Assembly (NCBI GenBank): GCA_036611895.1
Contig: GCA_036611895.1_4766.1
DNA: 64,000 bases
Source: a phage
Strand: one strand, 5' to 3'
The first letter of the stretch is position 1, and every line of letters begins with the position of its first letter. The position numbers were made by a program, and so were the translations under genes. Positions 14,122 to 28,469 of this stretch are shown one piece after another. A model generated the notes under the pieces. That model saw only the letters and a list, made by a program, of their open reading frames with translations, did no database searches and was not told the origin of the DNA.

Positions 14122-14575
14122 AGATGTAAGGGGTTAAATCTGGGGGAGTATAGTCTTTCCCTTTCATAACTTTCTTATTCTCATTGAAGACAGGTTCCCC
14201 ATCTTCAAACTTAGAATAGTTTGAGCGATTGACTTCAGCCAATGCTCCAGGGACATTCATCCCAAGGAAAGTACCGACGCCAGTTGCTGTAACAATCTGG
14301 TCTGCCAGTGAATCCAGCAGGTTGGTACTGGCGTCAATGCGATAAGCATCGTCATTACGTTTCATATGGTTTGCCAGATTTGTAATGGCATCTTGTGCAC
14401 GTTGTAGCAATTCTGCATCGTAGCTACCATTTGGATAAATGGTCTGAAGCATTTCTTCTACTTCTTCCAGATGACAACCAATCTGGGTACTAATGTTCTT
14501 ACTCGTCGGATTCGGTACGGCTTTTAGAAACCATTGCCGTGTGTTTTCCAGCGTACAAACGGATGAACTTGTCAT
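14120..14575 (-). CDS. hypothetical protein (possible MazG-like NTP pyrophosphohydrolase)
   Basis: LEEVEEM acidic motif reminiscent of the MazG EExxE pattern; N-terminus overlaps the upstream ORF by 77 nt, so the true start is probably internal. Confidence 0.3.
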   Translation of the reverse strand: MTSSSVCTLENTRQWFLKAVPNPTSKNISTQIGCHLEEVEEMLQTIYPNGSYDAELLQRAQDAITNLANHMKRNDDAYRIDASTNLLDSLADQIVTATGVGTFLGMNVPGALAEVNRSNYSKFEDGEPVFNENKKVMKGKDYTPPDLTPYI

Positions 14576-14894
14576 GCTCAGTCTCTTGGTTAAGGTGGCG
14601 ATTGTTATATGCCTCCAGAATCAAGTCTCTTACATATGAGCGAATCTCATAAGCAGGACCAACTTGTTCTGACAGCCAATCAGCCACATGGGTTGGTAAA
14701 GGACGTAATACGTTTTCCATGAACGTCCGACGTGTGTCGGCTGGTTCAATGTTTAGAGAACGCAATCGCAAAGTAACTGTAGTTGGGTGAACCCCCAACG
14801 TCTTAGCGATAGTTGCGAGGGACAGACCAACAGCATTCATACGAATGATGTCTTCATCGGTTGCTTTGCGATTACTTCTGAATACTTTAGACAT
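14499..14894 (-). CDS. helix-turn-helix DNA-binding protein
   Basis: GLSLATIAKTLGVHPTTVTLRLR looks like an HTH; RBS GAGGAAA upstream. Confidence 0.45.
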   Translation of the reverse strand: MSKVFRSNRKATDEDIIRMNAVGLSLATIAKTLGVHPTTVTLRLRSLNIEPADTRRTFMENVLRPLPTHVADWLSEQVGPAYEIRSYVRDLILEAYNNRHLNQETEHDKFIRLYAGKHTAMVSKSRTESDE

Positions 14895-22413: not shown

Positions 22414-22793
22414 TAGTATTTACTACCTCTTCTATACCAGGGGTAGTGATGGGTAGTACTTTTGCCTTTGAACACGTCCTTAGTACGGGGGTTCTTTTGT
22501 ATTTGAGCCAGATAAAGTTGTGTGTCATCCCCACATGGATTAAGCCAGAACTTATCTATGATTCGGTCTACCTTAGATTTCAGATGAGGTTCTGGGGGAA
22601 TATATGAAGGAAAAGGTCTGCTAGTAGTCCATCCTTTTTGAACAAGAACCTGCATTGTTGTGTAAAGATCTAATACATTTTCATTCTCCACTTGGTCATG
22701 GATAGTTTTACCCAAAGTGAGCATTGCAGTTTGTTCTAGCTTACTTAAGTCCAGCCCATACAAGATAGACTTACCATTTCGTCTGTTTGACAT
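22413..22793 (-). CDS. hypothetical protein
   Basis: 126-aa ORF. Confidence 0.4.
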   Translation of the reverse strand: MSNRRNGKSILYGLDLSKLEQTAMLTLGKTIHDQVENENVLDLYTTMQVLVQKGWTTSRPFPSYIPPEPHLKSKVDRIIDKFWLNPCGDDTQLYLAQIQKNPRTKDVFKGKSTTHHYPWYRRGSKY

Positions 22794-22809
22794 AAGAGTA
22801 CCTATAATT

Positions 22810-22835
22810 AAAAAAGCCCACGGGTTAGGTGGGCT
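22810..22835 (-). terminator. rho-independent terminator
   Basis: Plus strand AAAAAAGCCCAC-GGGTTAG-GTGGGCT; minus sense hairpin followed by a T-run. Confidence 0.55.
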
Positions 22836-22910
22836 TGGGTTAGGAGATGGATAAGCAATGAGCTGGAAGCAACTTCCACAAGCACCACTATATAATGATG
22901 CTTAGGTTAG

Positions 22911-23189
22911 TTACTCTGCTTTACTGCCACCATTGGTTTGAACAACAGTTACATTTGTAACCTGGTTCTGACCTTTGTTGGACAGTGCCCAAATCAGTGC
23001 TACTACCCAGAATACCAGTGACCAGCCTAATACGATATTAAGCACACCAATGCCCCACTTAGAGGCATGGCCTCGTGCAAAAGCAATGATAGTAGGGATA
23101 AGGTATACAGCTAATACAAATAACAGAACAAGGATTGCTGCTAAAGATTCCATGATGGTTCCTATGTGGGGTTGAGTTAGTTTCTTCAC
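22911..23189 (-). CDS. superinfection-immunity-like small membrane protein
   Basis: YLIPTIIAFARGH...NIVLGWSLVFWVVALIWAL matches the Imm-type pattern; two predicted TM helices. Confidence 0.6.
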   Translation of the reverse strand: MKKLTQPHIGTIMESLAAILVLLFVLAVYLIPTIIAFARGHASKWGIGVLNIVLGWSLVFWVVALIWALSNKGQNQVTNVTVVQTNGGSKAE

Positions 23190-23226
23190 AAATAGCCCAA
23201 CAGTGCTGGGCTATTTAGGCAGCTAC

Positions 23227-23436
23227 TTACTCAGCATCTTTGCTTGCAGGAGCAAGGGCTTTCTTCAGGTAATTACGTACTGAACGATAGGTTTCTTTGG
23301 TATCCAAAGTACCATCATTTACAAACGAAATACGCGCGCAATCAGACTGCGGAATCTGTTGCACTGCAATCACATTTGCAGCATTAATGGTTAAACGTAC
23401 ATCTGAGGTTGCATGGGTTACTTGAAATACTGACAT
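23227..23436 (-). CDS. hypothetical protein
   Basis: 69-aa ORF. Confidence 0.35.
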   Translation of the reverse strand: MSVFQVTHATSDVRLTINAANVIAVQQIPQSDCARISFVNDGTLDTKETYRSVRNYLKKALAPASKDAE

Positions 23437-23445
23437 GAGTTTTCC

Positions 23446-23952
23446 TTATTTGCTGCTTCTTGCAGCTACTGGTTTGTTTTCCTGGTTCTGATACTTACCA
23501 TTGTAATTAGCAGGTTCTTGAACCAGATGAAATAATACTTGAGCTATCCCAGCACCAGCCGGGATATGCAATTTCTTACGACCATGATAGACCAATTCAA
23601 GGGTGAGATACCCTTTCCATCCTGGTTCTATTACGGTATTGAACACTGATAATGCACGTCTTGCCCATGTAGACTTATCGTGAACTATAGCTACGCAGGA
23701 CGGGGACATGTTGAACTTCTCAATTGCTGAAGCCAATGTGAATTTACCGAAATGGCGTGATACTTGATTTCCATCAACAACCTTCACCATTGGAATCAAT
23801 CCAAATAAGCGATAGAAGGTAATATCTTGTTTGATACGAATATCATAACCAGCTTCACCCAATCCATAGCTTACACCGTGTTCAGATATCTTACGGTCTG
23901 GGACATCCAGCAACTGGGATGAACGATATAGAGAATTACCATTAACAACCAT
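23446..23952 (-). CDS. dcd: dCTP deaminase family protein
   Basis: NTVIEPGWKGYLTLEL and KSTWARRAL motifs typical of the dCTP deaminase/dUTPase fold. Confidence 0.75.
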   Translation of the reverse strand: MVVNGNSLYRSSQLLDVPDRKISEHGVSYGLGEAGYDIRIKQDITFYRLFGLIPMVKVVDGNQVSRHFGKFTLASAIEKFNMSPSCVAIVHDKSTWARRALSVFNTVIEPGWKGYLTLELVYHGRKKLHIPAGAGIAQVLFHLVQEPANYNGKYQNQENKPVAARSSK

Positions 23953-25127
23953 TATTTCATTCCTTTAGGGATATGAACTACCTCCCCAAAAGGTACGGTA
24001 GCATTGGGATTATTCAGAACACACCAGATGATTGGAATATCAAATGGCAATTCTTCCATTGGACGAACATACATATCGGAGAATATGATTGCAGCGGTTG
24101 GCTTATTCTTAATAATCCAATCTCGTACAGGCACAAGGCTTGTACCACCACGACCTGTAATCTTAATCTCTTCAAAAGTATCTTCTTCAGTGATGTCTAT
24201 CTCTTCTTGAATAATATCGTCGAAAGTAATTAAGGACATCTTCTTAGGGTTGAACTGGCTTTTAACGTAGGCAACCTCTGAGTTAAAACGCAGAGAGTCA
24301 GCACTACTAATAGAACCAGATACATCCTCAAAGTAGGCTAAGTGACGTAGGCGTCCTTCATCATCTTCCAGGGAAGGTAGATAAATATCAGTGTAACGAC
24401 GGTTAGGTCTGGCCCACGTATAGTGTGTGTCATCAATGTCGGTAAAGAAGTTCATGAGAACTTCCTGCCAAGGAACCACTGGTTTAAGGAATTGGGTAAT
24501 GACCTCTTCCATACGACCAGCACCCTTACCGGGCATCTGTCCACCAGCCATCTTCTGGCTCTGCATTGCACGTACTACGTTGTTGACTACAGCACCCTGG
24601 GACTGTCCCGAAGTGGGGGATTTCATGTCGCCAGCAAGACCTGCTCCAGCACCCCCTGACGGCTTCTGCCTTTTCTGAGGGTTCTTCATCAGGTCATCGT
24701 AGATGTCTTCTTCGACCCATCCTTTATATTGCGGGTCTTTGCAAATGCCTTCATCAATGCCAGTGAACTTGTAGCCATCTTCTTCTAACTGAAGGTTAAT
24801 GAAGTGGTCACAAGCCTGGTTCCATACTTCTGGGTCACGGCTTCCACGACGGATGTCATGTAGATATGCTACATGCCATAGTTCATGCATTAATACTGTT
24901 TCTCTTGCATCTGGACACATCCAGATAAAGAAATCAGGATTGAAATGGAGTTCTATCCCATCAGTACATGCAGTGGGACAATCCTCACGTTTCCATGAGA
25001 ATTTAAGACTACACAGTAATGAACCAAAGAACGCAGCAGACTTGCCCAGAAAGGCTTGGGCCTGAATACGGTCATACTCACGCATGAGTTGTTCATCACT
25101 AAGTGTGTGCTGAGGAAATTGGTTCAT
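23952..25127 (-). CDS. vWA-domain protein with zincin-like HExxH motif
   Basis: MHELWHVAYLH (HExxH) in the N-terminal half; partner of the adjacent MoxR-like ATPase. Confidence 0.5.
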   Translation of the reverse strand: MNQFPQHTLSDEQLMREYDRIQAQAFLGKSAAFFGSLLCSLKFSWKREDCPTACTDGIELHFNPDFFIWMCPDARETVLMHELWHVAYLHDIRRGSRDPEVWNQACDHFINLQLEEDGYKFTGIDEGICKDPQYKGWVEEDIYDDLMKNPQKRQKPSGGAGAGLAGDMKSPTSGQSQGAVVNNVVRAMQSQKMAGGQMPGKGAGRMEEVITQFLKPVVPWQEVLMNFFTDIDDTHYTWARPNRRYTDIYLPSLEDDEGRLRHLAYFEDVSGSISSADSLRFNSEVAYVKSQFNPKKMSLITFDDIIQEEIDITEEDTFEEIKITGRGGTSLVPVRDWIIKNKPTAAIIFSDMYVRPMEELPFDIPIIWCVLNNPNATVPFGEVVHIPKGMK

Positions 25128-25134
25128 GTTGTGA

Positions 25135-26187
25135 TTATCCGTGAATGTAACGAGAGATGTTAGCAGCAGCCTTACGCCATTCAGGGGTAGCCTGAAGTTC
25201 TGGTAATGCTCTGCCTACTGTACGGAAGTACAGAATCTTATGGGTGAACGTTTTAAAGCGTTCAATGTACTGAAGAACTTCAGCGAAATTCTCTTCAGTA
25301 GTTTTGTTAGCCAGATGGTTAACGGTAGCCCAGCACAGGTTGTTATCTTCCGGTAATGCACAGCCCAGTGGGTCTTTGACTACCTTCTCAATCGTAATGA
25401 TACGATTATATACCTGAGTAAACTGAACAAATTCTGTAGCTTTACCGGCAGTAACGTGTCCTGCATAGTAGATAGAATCTTCATCAGGCAGAGCACCTTC
25501 TGGTAGGTTCTTGAGGTCTTTATTAACAAAGTCCCAGGTACGTGGACAACAGAAAGTTTTGTTCTTATGTGCTGGGTCGAAGTCATGCAGGTAACCAGGG
25601 TTAGCATGTAAGAATGCAACCAGACGTTCATCCCATTGTTGGGGAATCATTACATCTTCAACAAAGATGTCGAAGTTAAGTTCCATCTCAAAGTGAACCA
25701 CACGAGACTGCATTGCAGTACCCAGAGGATTAACAATGGCACGGTCAGTAGCTTTGTTACCAGCACAGACAATCATCACATTAGGATGAAGTTTTTTCTG
25801 ACCAGTCATACGGTCTAGAATTAGTTTGTATGCAGCAGCTACCACTTCTTTCTTAGCTGAGTTGAACTCATCAAGGAACAGGAGCCAGCCATTATAACCT
25901 TCGGGTACTTCGTCTCCCTCAATGGGAAATAAGTCAGCGAATGGTATAAACTCTGCACGGTCACCATTACGGAATGGCAAACCAGACAGGTCTTCCGGGG
26001 CAGAAGTAGACAGACGATGGTCTATCAGTTTCATACCAAATTCTTCTGCAATAGAACGAATGATTGCAGATTTACCCATGCCTGGTGATGAAGTTAGGAA
26101 TGGTACGTTACCTGCTTTCAAAGCACGGATAATAAAGTTACGAGCTTGACGTGAATTACATACGGTCAAGGAGTCAATGCTTGCCAT
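25135..26187 (-). CDS. MoxR-like AAA+ ATPase
   Basis: Walker A SPGMGKS and Walker B LLFLDEFN. Confidence 0.7.
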   Translation of the reverse strand: MASIDSLTVCNSRQARNFIIRALKAGNVPFLTSSPGMGKSAIIRSIAEEFGMKLIDHRLSTSAPEDLSGLPFRNGDRAEFIPFADLFPIEGDEVPEGYNGWLLFLDEFNSAKKEVVAAAYKLILDRMTGQKKLHPNVMIVCAGNKATDRAIVNPLGTAMQSRVVHFEMELNFDIFVEDVMIPQQWDERLVAFLHANPGYLHDFDPAHKNKTFCCPRTWDFVNKDLKNLPEGALPDEDSIYYAGHVTAGKATEFVQFTQVYNRIITIEKVVKDPLGCALPEDNNLCWATVNHLANKTTEENFAEVLQYIERFKTFTHKILYFRTVGRALPELQATPEWRKAAANISRYIHG

Positions 26188-26221
26188 TTACTTACTCTCC
26201 TAAAGCTAATGGAATTACTAA

Positions 26222-26548
26222 TTAAGATTTAATACATGGGTATGCTGTATCAATCGCCAACAGAACCATGTCTGATGGCACTTTTATTGCATTAACCTTT
26301 CGGTCATACAGAATAATAGTGGCTACCTTGTCAAAGACATTTCCTAACTTCAAATGCTCTGGTACGCAGTTTTTTCCTGCTTCTACGCCCATAGTAACCA
26401 TGCCCATGAAATAACCCTGGTTCACAAAGTTTGCATTATTGGCTTTGTAGTCGGCAGCAGCATCCAACAAGGTTTCACGGCTAGATGCTTGGGCATTGAA
26501 TGACAGAACAGATAAAGCTACTACAGCAACAGCAATTAAAGTTTTCAT
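26222..26548 (-). CDS. secreted or periplasmic small protein
   Basis: N-terminal signal-peptide-like MKTLIAVAVVALSVLSFNAQA. Confidence 0.45.
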   Translation of the reverse strand: MKTLIAVAVVALSVLSFNAQASSRETLLDAAADYKANNANFVNQGYFMGMVTMGVEAGKNCVPEHLKLGNVFDKVATIILYDRKVNAIKVPSDMVLLAIDTAYPCIKS

Positions 26549-26734
26549 TTAGTTACCTTTTAATTGGTTTAGTTGAAGTACACCGATAGGGGTTAATGAC
26601 CACCCAAGACCAGCATTGAACTGTACTAAGCCCAGCTTCTTAAGAGACTGTGCGGTTTTGTTATTACGGTTGCTGGTGGCAGAACCACCTTGAACCATAC
26701 GAAGGAATATTGCTTGGGACTGGGTTAATTTCAC
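26549..26734 (-). CDS. hypothetical protein
   Basis: 61-aa ORF. Confidence 0.3.
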   Translation of the reverse strand: MKLTQSQAIFLRMVQGGSATSNRNNKTAQSLKKLGLVQFNAGLGWSLTPIGVLQLNQLKGN

Positions 26735-26991
26735 TCATCTTCTCCTTCATCTGGGAGTGGTGATAAATCTACACCTAAATGCTCAAAGCGTTTTTCTAAG
26801 ACAGCAATCCTCTTTTGATAAAATGACAGCAGTTCAGGAAGTATTCTTGTACGAGCTTGTGGTCCTAAATCCGTACCATTGAATGATACTTTCACCATAT
26901 GTGGTGACTTCTTCAAACTAGCTAATTGCTGTCGGTTGTCGTTGTATTCTTCATACAGTTTTTCAACCAAACGTAGATTATGAATATTCAT
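26731..26991 (-). CDS. hypothetical protein
   Basis: 86-aa ORF with stop/start overlap. Confidence 0.4.
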   Translation of the reverse strand: MNIHNLRLVEKLYEEYNDNRQQLASLKKSPHMVKVSFNGTDLGPQARTRILPELLSFYQKRIAVLEKRFEHLGVDLSPLPDEGEDE

Positions 26992-27209
26992 TTCTTCTCC
27001 GGTACGAACTGCATTACACAGTTTTGATTACGAGGGATATTAAGTTCACATTCATGTTTGAGGGTTTGTGTTACAGAGTTTGGAGTAGAACCAAAGTAGG
27101 TATTAGATATAGCTACAAATCCTGCACCTATTAAACCACCTAGCAAGAATGAGAAGAATGCAATCTCTTTATACATTTCCTGGCTCCAGATGTAGAAAAC
27201 CCCAGTCAA
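26988..27209 (-). CDS. small membrane protein
   Basis: 73 aa with a central hydrophobic helix. Confidence 0.35.
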   Translation of the reverse strand: MTGVFYIWSQEMYKEIAFFSFLLGGLIGAGFVAISNTYFGSTPNSVTQTLKHECELNIPRNQNCVMQFVPEKK

Positions 27210-27237
27210 TGCTGGGGTTTATCTATCAGTTTATACT

Positions 27238-27498
27238 TTATAGACCGTGTGGTCGGCATAGACTACCTGAACCAAAGGAACGATGTCCAAGTCGGCCCAG
27301 GATTAGGTTGCTTACTTCAGCAGCAGCACGACTGAATGCTTTAAAGTCAAAGACTACGATACCAAAGAGTGGGGCTGCGATAGCAGCTACCATGATTGGC
27401 GTCAGGTCAACCAGTGACATACCCAAGATTAAGTGAGCAGCGTAGGCAATAATACCCATTCCAACACCACAACCATATCCAATAGCAATTTTACGCAT
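27238..27498 (-). CDS. small membrane protein
   Basis: 86 aa, Gly/Ala-rich hydrophobic segments. Confidence 0.35.
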   Translation of the reverse strand: MRKIAIGYGCGVGMGIIAYAAHLILGMSLVDLTPIMVAAIAAPLFGIVVFDFKAFSRAAAEVSNLILGRLGHRSFGSGSLCRPHGL

Positions 27499-27555
27499 AG
27501 TTACCTTCTTAGTTAGTAGATTGATACATATTCATATAACAGACAAACAATAGTC

Positions 27556-27585
27556 AAAAAAAGACCTCCCTTCAATAGGGAGGTC
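27556..27585 (-). terminator. rho-independent terminator
   Basis: Plus strand AAAAAAAGACCTCCC-TTCAATA-GGGAGGTC; minus sense stem followed by T7. Confidence 0.6.
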
Positions 27586-27635
27586 AAGCTTGGGAGTTTT
27601 ATTTCAGGGTTTATAACCCCAAACAAAGGATACCC

Positions 27636-28469
27636 TTATTCTGCAACAGTAACAGGGATGGTTACATCGACAGTACCATTGGTAACTACTACAGAAGTAG
27701 CATCACCAGCAGCAACTGGTTTAACCGTCAGTACGTTACCAGCAATGGTAGCTGTAGCACGACCGGATTCTGGAGCAGTCTTGATAGACAAAGTACCGAC
27801 AGATGAGCCAACAGGCATAGCAACAATCGTTACGTTCTTACCATCAGTAGTATCAGCAGCAACAGACAGAGCCAGTGAAGCTGGAGTAGCTACCAATGAG
27901 CTTGCTTCGTAGTAGCCTACAGCCAGCAGCGACTCATCTTCTACAGTGGTTCCATTAGCATCGGTAACAATCACTTTGTAAGTACCAGCAGAAGCAGCTG
28001 TTACGCCATTAAGAGACAATGTTGCAGTAGCAGCGGATTCATTCTCACCTGAATCAATATCAGCGAATGCTGCACCAGCAGTATTAGTTTTGAATTGCCA
28101 TTTATAAGTAAATGGTGCTTTACCACCTGCTACATCAACATGCCAGTTAATATCCTCACCTTCGATAGCAGAGACTACACGAGGCAGTTTGGTAGCAATA
28201 GTCAGTCGTGGAGTAGCCTTCATCTCAATAGAGATAGCCTGCATATCCACGATGTTGTTAGGCCAGAAGCCTTCTTCAGCAGGGTTTTTGGCAGAGCGTT
28301 TATACAGCAGATCACGAACACCATGAAAGATAACTAAGCTATCTGGATAAGTGGCATCTGGATGTACAAAGGTTCCTACTTCTACGGAACCACCTGGGAT
28401 AGAGCCATTGGCATCCAGTACAGTTGCAACATTAGTGGTTTTGTTAAAACCTACTTTTAAAGTTGGCAT
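27636..28469 (-). CDS. Ig-like domain protein
   Basis: Thr/Ala/Val-rich beta-strand-like repeats (KVIVTDANGTTV, VTIPVTVAE); start moved to the ATG at 28469, which has a GAGGAAA RBS. Confidence 0.5.
   Translation of the reverse strand: MPTLKVGFNKTTNVATVLDANGSIPGGSVEVGTFVHPDATYPDSLVIFHGVRDLLYKRSAKNPAEEGFWPNNIVDMQAISIEMKATPRLTIATKLPRVVSAIEGEDINWHVDVAGGKAPFTYKWQFKTNTAGAAFADIDSGENESAATATLSLNGVTAASAGTYKVIVTDANGTTVEDESLLAVGYYEASSLVATPASLALSVAADTTDGKNVTIVAMPVGSSVGTLSIKTAPESGRATATIAGNVLTVKPVAAGDATSVVVTNGTVDVTIPVTVAE

Follow-up and report, generated by a model that had tools for sequence, protein, structure and literature searches.

The two adjacent genes at positions 23,952–26,187 of the stretch of phage DNA that we analysed (64,000 nucleotides in total, hereafter the window) are gp24/gp25, a pair conserved among N4-like phages, and encode an AAA+ ATPase and a DUF2201 protein with a zincin-like domain and a vWA domain. 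Based on the domain identities, the conserved catalytic and metal-binding residues and the adjacency of the two genes across phages and bacteria, we propose that the pair is a two-protein, ATP-driven machine for remodelling and cleavage that is made in mid-infection, the remodeller and the protease being split between the two proteins. We put the probability of this reading at roughly 0.45. The Schitoviridae, a large family of phages in therapeutic use, share a small conserved core of genes that includes the pair.

The gene pair and its neighbourhood

From the ORF list, we found that positions 23,952–26,187 are filled exactly by two ORFs on the minus strand. The ATPase gene (25,135–26,187; 350 aa) has an ATG start with a good GGAG upstream and is separated by a spacer of 7 nt from the gene of the DUF2201 protein (23,952–25,127; 391 aa), which also starts with ATG and whose stop codon shares bases with the start of the dCTP deaminase gene at an ATGA...TAATG junction. 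The preliminary description of this DNA had recognised adjacent genes on the same strand and a 391-aa partner, leaving the strand itself unstated, and both ORFs were confirmed.

The region showed 90–93% DNA identity to genomes of the G7C group and 99% protein identity to the counterpart in phage St11Ph5, and PHROGs 1297 and 1314 were matched at 9e-134 and 5e-144; the window is a G7C-like Gamaleyavirus. In the G7C record the two genes stand in the same order, are labelled gp24 and gp25, and are described as 'similar to N4 gp24/gp25', the equivalent of the 391-aa gene being annotated as gp25 'VWA-like domain-containing protein'. G7C and several relatives have a free-standing HNH homing endonuclease gene (gp24.1) between gp24 and gp25, whereas the window has only the short spacer. 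Both genes are middle genes and belong to the 14 core genes of N4-like phages (PMC4193335, PMC2784036), and their homologues are absent from the 13 virion proteins detected by mass spectrometry in RPP1/RLP1 (PMC4193335). Both genes, the domains they encode and the way they are paired had been recorded before in Pfam, PHROGs, GenBank annotations and two comparative-genomics papers. The preliminary description had mentioned neither the identity with the N4 gp24/gp25 core pair nor the MIDAS motif nor the earlier account in jumbo phages (PMC7824862). It was right that the function in phage is not established: our literature searches, which covered DUF2201, PRTRC/DUF3150/COG3864, the VWA protein of Schitoviridae and CRISPRi-ART phage screens, found no experimental study of either gene. 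In NCBIfam neither the ATPase nor the 391-aa protein had a match. In PADLOC, which contains defence proteins and not anti-defence proteins, the ATPase gave only DolB at a negligible level (E 0.006, 13.8 bits) and the partner gave nothing.

The gene order RNAP2, gp17, small ORFs, gp24, gp25, dCTP deaminase and ThyX is common to the window and G7C, and the gene of the Hoc-like virion protein gp17 lies just upstream of the pair in the window. Two terminator-like hairpins on the minus strand delimit the unit that contains the pair, one upstream (27,563–27,585), where a stem-loop is annotated at the equivalent place in G7C, and one downstream (22,814–22,836); the ten ORFs between them are probably co-transcribed. 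Beside the pair, this putative transcription unit also contains genes of a Tai4/Rap1a-like secreted protein and an Imm-like membrane protein. Sigma-70 promoter-like sites were fewer in the region than in shuffled sequence (4 versus 11.2), and this scarcity fits transcription by N4's own polymerases and says nothing more.

Domains and conserved residues of the two proteins

The Walker A, Walker B and HELWH motifs given in the preliminary description were all present by translation. In the ATPase, Walker A (SPGMGKS) occupies residues 34–40 (26,068–26,088, minus strand), with G38 and K39 invariant in phage and bacterial orthologues, and Walker B (LLFLDEFN) occupies residues 102–109 (25,861–25,884, minus strand), with D106 invariant; the adjoining E107 is invariant in the phage copies and is replaced by Asp (DD for DE) in 14 bacterial loci. 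In the alignment, strands 2 and 3 of the ATPase core are separated by a conserved insert (residues ~59–99; 25,891–26,013, minus strand) with the motif S/DPxDLxGLP, in which P64, D66 and G69 are invariant in 31/31 aligned ATPase sequences and pLDDT is low at residues 64–78. From its position, this insert of about 40 residues probably corresponds to the helix-2 insert of MoxR/midasin-type AAA+ proteins. N144, R162 and R216 are invariant at the places expected for sensor 1, the arginine finger and sensor 2, their roles being assigned by position only, and the C-terminal region of about 180 residues is all-helical in the predicted model.

A Pfam domain search had been suggested as a check on the pair. 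Of the three domains named for it, DUF2201 and VWA-like were matched in the partner; the ATPase of the window passed the generic AAA family (PF00004; 27.3 bits against a cut-off of 21.2), but fell under the cut-off of AAA_5 (PF07728; 17.4 bits against 22) and did not match AAA_3 (PF07726). Its bacterial orthologues exceed the AAA_5 cut-off with 27.7–29.3 bits, and one of them attains AAA_3/MoxR (27.1 against 27). Compared with solved structures, the profile of the ATPase family gave matches to midasin (2.5e-27), NorQ (8e-5) and the MoxR protein 2r44 (6e-4), and midasin, dynein, CbbQ, NorQ and MoxR were the nearest solved relatives by sequence profile and fold. Judged from sequence, gp24 belongs to the midasin/dynein/MoxR (AAA_5) branch of AAA+ ATPases. 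The name 'MoxR-like' used earlier holds in a broad sense, with the profile matches and the bacterial orthologues on its side and the AAA_5 score of the window protein itself against it.

In the partner, Pfam placed the putative metallopeptidase domain DUF2201_N (PF13203, 4e-57) at residues 17–253 (24,369–25,079, minus strand) and the vWA domain DUF2201 'VWA-like' (PF09967, 2e-34) at residues 263–386 (23,970–24,341, minus strand), which agrees with the vWA partner fused to a zincin-like peptidase that had been suspected. A lack of any vWA or MoxR profile match, named beforehand as speaking against the pair, was not what we observed. The HELWH motif (HExxH) at residues 81–85 (24,873–24,887, minus strand) lies inside the modelled helix 72–87. 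The chance expectation of one HExxH in a protein of such composition is ~0.015, and the motif is more than chance because it is invariant in 30/30 phage homologues and lies in a protein with so strong a DUF2201_N match. In 35 aligned phage and bacterial sequences, H81, H85, W102, N103, A105, D107, I110 and N111 are invariant. D107, in the WNxACD motif, stands 22 residues past H85 in the modelled helix 99–116, and is a candidate third metal ligand on the next helix. The DUF2201_N domain had weak profile matches to an HtpX homologue (3cqb, E 0.069) and to the minigluzincin MJ1213 (E 0.76), and a single-sequence search of the PDB with the 391-aa protein found nothing. The C-terminal region qualifies as a vWA domain by both its profile match and its Rossmann-like vWA fold. 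It contains the MIDAS motif DVSGS (DxSxS) at residues 268–272 (24,312–24,326, minus strand), completed by T329 and D351, and D268, S270, S272, T329 and D351 are invariant in the phage alignment as well as in the alignment of phage and bacterial sequences.

Relatives in phages, bacteria and other AAA+ systems

The DUF2201 family is represented by 13,164 cluster representatives (50% identity) that match at E <= 1e-3, and is spread over unrelated lytic phages, including N4-like phages, Asteriusvirus, Vequintavirus and Campylobacter phages. In group 2.2 jumbo phages, a MoxR ATPase and a vWA protein with a fused N-terminal metallopeptidase were described by Iyer et al. 2021 (PMC7824862). This pair is homologous to that of the window and has the same two-gene architecture, the homology having been computed on the Asteriusvirus phage UB, in which the ATPase gene (E 1.4e-42 to the ATPase profile) lies immediately upstream of the gene of the DUF2201 protein (E 9.5e-44); at 441 and 474 aa, the proteins of the jumbo phages exceed those of the window in length, contain insertions and are only ~24% identical to them. 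The rV5-like phage WalterGehring has a DUF2201 protein without an adjacent ATPase of the gp24 family. An 'anti-sigma factor' upstream of the rV5-like homologue was considered as a mislabelled ATPase, and proved not to be one.

Hundreds of bacterial genomes contain orthologues of the ATPase and the DUF2201 protein, co-oriented and in the same order, with 26–33% identity over the full length. Among 79 bacterial loci, the orthologous ATPase lies upstream on the same strand in about 68 (E 1e-45 to 1e-67 in most), and a third gene of ~310 aa, DUF3150-like, lies in or beside the cassette in 56. We found no homologue of the third gene in the window (hmmsearch, E <= 10) or in PHROGs; since bacterial cassettes usually have it and the phages do not, the phage system may work differently. 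In 10 bacterial loci another residue stands in place of the catalytic Glu of HExxH, while both His and the Asp are kept, indicating that at least in one clade the domain can function without acting as a peptidase. The Glu is present in 54 of 54 bacterial cassettes with the third gene, so that in our sample the presence of the DUF3150-like protein tracks perfectly with an intact Glu. In some DUF2201 homologues the invariant WNxAC|D is the exact insertion point of an intein, and inteins tend to sit in functionally critical motifs. At selected loci the cassettes neighbour genes of Trb/VirB type IV secretion, PRTRC ThiF, PRTRC_E, ParB_N, RNase HI, Gp157 and the Mom family. These calls come from hand-picked loci scanned with Pfam and NCBIfam, so that their frequencies are rough counts only; such loci were used because automatic clustering of neighbouring ORFs was noisy, with spurious antisense ORFs in high-GC loci. 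We found no literature on the bacterial cassette of ATPase, DUF3150-like and DUF2201 genes; what the present analysis adds is that such cassettes are common and usually include the third gene, together with the loss of the Glu in some and the position of the inteins.

Several known systems resemble the pair in part. Midasin (Rea1/Mdn1) is one eukaryotic chain of ~4,700–5,000 residues with six AAA modules and no peptidase, whereas the window pair has one AAA module per chain and its vWA domain is on a separate protein that bears the zincin-like domain. In NorQ/NorD, CbbQ/CbbO and RavA/ViaA, the partners have no peptidase domain and the role is cofactor insertion or enzyme reactivation; the sequence similarity is weak (E 1e-4 to 3e-3), and the all-helical C-terminal region of the phage ATPase is a further difference. 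The likeness to FtsH/Lon-type AAA+ proteases is one of functional analogy only, an AAA+ unfoldase being combined with a peptidase (zinc HExxH in FtsH). In FtsH, a single chain carries both activities, its ATPase falls in the classical AAA clade and a vWA domain is lacking; the searches gave only generic AAA+ similarity and no specific sequence relationship.

Proposed function and competing explanations

In the proposed machine, gp24, as a midasin/MoxR-type AAA+ ATPase, would form a ring, and gp25 would bind to it and act as its adaptor and effector. The C-terminal vWA domain of gp25, with its complete MIDAS metal site, may grip an acidic residue of the client, or may dock on the ATPase ring in the manner of midasin's own MIDAS domain. 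The zincin-like domain, with HExxH and the invariant Asp on the next helix, would cut the client at a site that the ATPase has first made accessible. Both proteins keep the residues that activity would require (Walker A/B, N144, R162 and R216 in the ATPase; H81, E82, H85, D107 and MIDAS in the partner), functional coupling is indicated by gene adjacency in the window, G7C, phage UB and the ~68/79 bacterial loci, and PMC7159879 reviews mechanistic precedents for MoxR–vWA pairs. Points against such a machine are the loss of the Glu in the ten bacterial homologues, the DD for DE of Walker B in 14 bacterial ATPases, the DUF2201 protein without a neighbouring ATPase in phages such as WalterGehring, and the third bacterial gene that the phage lacks. 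The client is more likely to be an intracellular protein, either of the host or a phage protein of replication or takeover, than a part of the virion, because the two proteins are non-structural, the genes lie in a middle operon with nucleotide-metabolism genes, and the cassettes occur in mobile elements that make no virions. The arguments from neighbourhood are weak, because structural genes are nearby too (gp17 in the window, and the flanks of the pair in phage UB).

A possible but doubtful alternative is that the pair serves virion assembly, folding or assembling a structural protein such as the tail, the decoration protein gp17 or the giant virion RNA polymerase as a chaperone, while the zincin trims it as a maturation protease. 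An assembly role is the hypothesis of Iyer et al. for the same architecture in jumbo phages (PMC7824862 section 3.4.5), and has a precedent in the MoxR/vWA pair of Acidianus two-tailed virus, which acts in tail development (cited in PMC7824862, PMC7159879). It also agrees with the genes annotated as structural that flank the pair in phage UB, with the Hoc-like gene upstream of the pair in the window, and with a 'second structural module' of middle-expressed virion genes near the gp24/25 homologues of roseophages, whose authors speculate that tail proteins may require maturation before assembly (PMC4193335). That the homologues were undetected in virions (PMC4193335) counts against this role, although an assembly factor need not be packaged. 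The position of the pair speaks against assembly, as it lies in a middle operon with dCTP deaminase, near ThyX and outside the late structural block, and so do the orthologous cassettes, which are common in bacterial conjugative and integrative islands that build no virions. Furthermore, we know of no processed structural protein in N4. A different view of these cassettes, which we consider unlikely, is that the phage pair is a cut-down form, with two genes only, of a 'split AAA+ metalloprotease' spread across mobile elements, in which the DUF3150-like protein of conjugative and integrative elements may be the substrate or an activator, as its tracking with the intact Glu suggests, and whose shared role would be in entry into or establishment in a new host cell, for example by destruction or remodelling of host proteins, and not in virion assembly; if so, one of the 14 N4-like core functions is a host-directed protease.

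There is a small chance that no proteolysis is involved and that the pair inserts or exchanges a metal in a target enzyme as a metal-cofactor chaperone, like the AAA+/vWA pairs of the NorQ/NorD, CoxD/CoxE and CobS/CobT type, the His-His-Asp site of DUF2201_N holding metal rather than catalysing hydrolysis. Known MoxR–vWA pairs often act in metal-centre maturation (PMC7159879), and comparisons of structure and sequence place NorQ and the VWA domain of NorD among the neighbours. H81, H85 and D107 are invariant in 35/35 sequences while the Glu is dispensable in ten bacterial loci, and the pair adjoins nucleotide-metabolism enzymes in N4-like phages, in phage UB and in L003; yet, to our knowledge, neither dCTP deaminase nor the flavin-dependent ThyX needs an inserted metal centre. 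The invariance of the Glu in the 30 phage homologues and the 54 three-gene cassettes argues for catalysis in most members, and Pfam and the weak HtpX/minigluzincin similarity point to a peptidase ancestry. Just as improbable in our opinion is a counter-defence or host-takeover protease in the narrow sense, which would act early after entry and eliminate one particular host protein, of immunity or of housekeeping, that it recognises. Such a need would be common to phages and conjugative elements, and the family is indeed found in unrelated lytic phages and in islands of conjugative elements, with flanking genes of the same unit in the window that look like conflict genes (Tai4/Rap1a-like, Imm-like). 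However, no PADLOC model matched beyond the negligible DolB, and the pair belongs to an N4-like core set that is strictly conserved across very different hosts (PMC4193335), whereas anti-defence genes are normally accessory and variable. This explanation is a sub-case of the remodelling and cleavage machine, and sequence data do not separate the two.

Identification of the client would close one of the last gaps among the core functions of N4-like phages and account for a cassette that conjugative elements often carry. A practical by-product of the analysis concerns the label 'HNH endonuclease', which PHROG 1314 and dozens of records attach to the gp25 gene: Pfam sees only DUF2201_N and DUF2201 in the protein, covering residues 17–386, and the label is a mis-annotation.

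Domain composition of the gene pair

The ORF listing showed that positions 23952-26187 of the window are exactly taken up by two minus-strand ORFs, encoding a 350-aa ATPase (25135..26187; gp24 by N4/G7C naming) and a 391-aa DUF2201 protein (23952..25127; gp25). A spacer of 7 nt separates them, and the gp25 stop codon overlaps the start of the dCTP deaminase gene next in line. The preliminary description had read the region as adjacent same-strand genes for a MoxR-like ATPase and a vWA protein with an HExxH motif. This reading was supported, and translation recovered each of the quoted motifs: SPGMGKS (residues 34-40) and LLFLDEFN (102-109) in the ATPase, and HELWH (81-85) in its partner.

The only Pfam model passed by the window ATPase was the generic AAA (27.3 bits). 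It scored under the cut-off of AAA_5, the model suggested for it earlier (17.4 vs 22), whereas its bacterial orthologues clear this cut-off, one of them reaching the MoxR model, AAA_3. In a single-sequence search of the PDB, midasin was the only significant match, and a profile built from 31 phage and bacterial orthologues matched midasin (2.5e-27), NorQ (8e-5), the MoxR protein 2r44 (6e-4) and CbbQ (3e-3). These PDB and Pfam matches place the protein in the midasin/dynein/MoxR branch. The P-loop, Walker B, N144, R162 and R216 are conserved, and an insert of ~40 residues with a DPxDLxGLP motif lies at the position of the helix-2 insert of MoxR-type ATPases; the putative roles of these residues and of the insert are assigned from position. 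In 14 bacterial ATPases, the DE of Walker B is replaced by DD.

For the 391-aa protein, the expected vWA assignment was confirmed by Pfam, with DUF2201_N ('putative metallopeptidase domain') matching residues 17-253 (4e-57) and DUF2201 ('VWA-like domain') matching residues 263-386 (2e-34). The latter contains a complete MIDAS metal site (DVSGS 268-272, T329 and D351), a feature absent from the preliminary description. In the N-terminal half, HELWH lies inside helix 72-87, which comes after a small sheet, and helix 99-116 bears the invariant Asp of a WNxACD motif; this arrangement is the layout of a zincin. Searches against solved structures gave no confirmation of a zincin fold, the vWA domain dominating both of them, and the family profile produced nothing beyond weak matches, at E 0.069 to an HtpX homologue and at E 0.76 to the minigluzincin MJ1213. 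H81, H85, D107 and the MIDAS residues were invariant in all 35 aligned phage and bacterial sequences. Two metagenomic homologues, P0251 (701 aa) and P0245 (519 aa), carry an intein with Hint/intein-splicing domains, which interrupts the invariant motif of the peptidase-like domain precisely at the A105/C106 junction ('...WNFA/C...VVVHN/CDIRINN', slashes marking the junctions; codon C106, window nt ~24810-24812), a position that fits a functionally central role of WNxACD.

PHROG 1314 passes the label 'HNH endonuclease' to dozens of phage records of the DUF2201 gene, and we rejected it, since no HNH domain is present in the protein. Between gp24 and gp25, G7C and some relatives carry a separate HNH homing endonuclease gene, gp24.1, which may be the origin of the mislabel.

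Genome setting and distribution

The DNA of the pair region shows 90-93% identity to that of G7C-group coliphages (Gamaleyavirus, Schitoviridae), which are N4-like podophages. In the annotated G7C genome, RNAP2 (gp16) and Hoc-like gp17 are followed by three small ORFs, then by gp24 'ATPase', gp25 ('VWA-like domain-containing protein'), gp26 dCTP deaminase and, at a greater distance, gp30 ThyX; the G7C record notes gp24 and gp25 as similar to those of N4, and Pfam and PHROG matches showed that the window neighbours follow this order. Two terminator-like minus-strand hairpins (27585-27563 and 22836-22814) flank a run of ten ORFs that includes the pair. Since these hairpins bracket the run and G7C has annotated stem-loops at both corresponding places, we infer that the ten ORFs are co-transcribed. 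Sigma-70-type promoter-like sites were rarer than expected in window 22500-27800 (4 vs 11.2 ± 3.0 in shuffles), which is consistent with transcription by RNA polymerases of the phage itself.

Just upstream of the ATPase gene lies a 108-aa ORF (26222-26548, minus strand) with a signal-peptide-like N-terminus and a weak Pfam match to Rap1a immunity protein under the cut-off (E 0.005); it corresponds to G7C gp17.3 and is annotated as Tai4 (type VI secretion amidase immunity protein) in related phages. The same putative transcription unit contains a predicted 92-aa membrane protein (22911-23189, minus strand); the G7C record describes its counterpart there, gp27.1, as resembling the T4-type Imm superinfection-immunity protein.

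A 2014 study counted gp24 and gp25 among the 14 core genes of N4-like phages and described them as middle transcripts of unknown function (PMC4193335). With this core-gene listing, the Pfam families DUF2201_N and DUF2201 and the architecture described in jumbo phages in 2021, the pair is already known; the preliminary description of it is correct but not new. Our literature search found no experimental work on any family member; the pair stands as an unsolved but well-catalogued core function of N4-like phages.

DUF2201 homologues were found in 734 phage records, covering N4-likes of many hosts, Asteriusvirus jumbo phages, rV5-like Vequintavirus and Campylobacter phages, and 13,164 family cluster representatives (defined at 50% identity) matched at E <= 1e-3. 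The pair is not phage-specific: in a scan of one genome per species, at least 571 bacterial loci encoded a full-length DUF2201 protein (26-33% identity), and in about 68 of the 79 retrieved loci the DUF2201 gene is preceded on the same strand by an ATPase orthologous to the phage one (for most, E 1e-45 to 1e-67). Among hand-checked loci, the Paraburkholderia cassette adjoins Trb/VirB type IV secretion genes, and others adjoin PRTRC ThiF, PRTRC_E, RNase HI, Siphovirus Gp157, a Mom-family protein, an SNF2 helicase or a ParB_N protein; these neighbourhoods are mobile-element islands.

A third gene of ~310 codons was present in 56 of the 79 bacterial loci, mostly between the ATPase and DUF2201 genes and otherwise beside them (for example L028:5033-5977 and L035:5028-5942, among loci L006-L081). 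Its product is weakly DUF3150-like (23 bits in L050), with no NCBIfam match and no counterpart in the window or in PHROGs. In ten bacterial loci (Desulfobacterota, Thiotrichaceae), the catalytic Glu of HExxH has given way to T, I, L or V, and all ten are without the third gene; in all 54 loci where the third gene accompanies a recognisable motif, that motif is HExxH. As the ten loci are probably one clade, this correlation carries the weight of a single observation. The phage copies of both proteins retain every catalytic residue. We regard the third gene and the mobile-element link as starting points for experiments more than as surprises.

Possible mechanism and client

Starting from what is established for MoxR-vWA pairs (reviewed in PMC7159879) and from the added peptidase-like head, the most economical reading is that the pair may be a split ATP-dependent remodeller/protease, each step of which we infer from domains and conservation. 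The gp24 protein would form a ring and provide mechanical work, the vWA domain of gp25 would, through its MIDAS site, grip an acidic residue of the client or dock on the ring, and the zincin-like domain would do the cutting. A minor rival is a non-proteolytic role in metal handling, suggested by the bacterial clade that kept the metal ligands and lost the catalytic Glu.

As to the client of such a remodeller/protease, a serious rival is the proposal of Iyer et al. for jumbo phages (PMC7824862): like the MoxR/vWA pair of Acidianus two-tailed virus, from which the analogy is drawn, the pair would act in virion assembly, with processing by peptidolysis. Homologues of both window proteins adjoin in Asteriusvirus UB, a jumbo phage of the kind treated there, and structural genes lie near the pair in UB, in roseophages and in the window (gp17). 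We lean, on thin grounds, towards an intracellular client over a virion component, because the pair are middle genes among nucleotide-metabolism genes, because their homologues were absent from the 13 virion proteins detected by mass spectrometry in roseophages RPP1 and RLP1 (PMC4193335), and because the orthologous cassette is common in elements that do not make virions.

Unusual single loci

The rV5-like phages, represented by Escherichia phage WalterGehring (Vequintavirus; L083:3435-4895), encode a full-length DUF2201 homologue that keeps HEVGH and DVSGS, with GGGT of the MIDAS loop changed to STWGTT. No ATPase of the gp24 family adjoins this gene; the upstream 'anti-sigma factor' gene was considered as a mislabelled ATPase and rejected, since its product is not an AAA+ protein.

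A block of the isolate genome of Mesorhizobium yinganensis CN2-181 (contig2, 727 kb; L003:3900-13137) is colinear with the window and carries the ATPase together with the DUF2201 protein (46% identity), as well as dCTP deaminase, ThyX and a homologue of window 14499-14894. It directly adjoins the host ribBA and aroC genes, and its GC content is 0.51-0.59 vs 0.62-0.65 in host genes. N4-like phages are regarded as strictly lytic; either integration of an N4-like element or a mis-assembly could account for the block. Both proteins were also ~79% identical to those of the window in a 69-kb contig binned as 'MAG: archaeon isolate PL23a_bin.95' (JANQNF010000027.1), which is almost certainly a mis-binned coliphage contig, as its length matches the size of a G7C-like phage genome.
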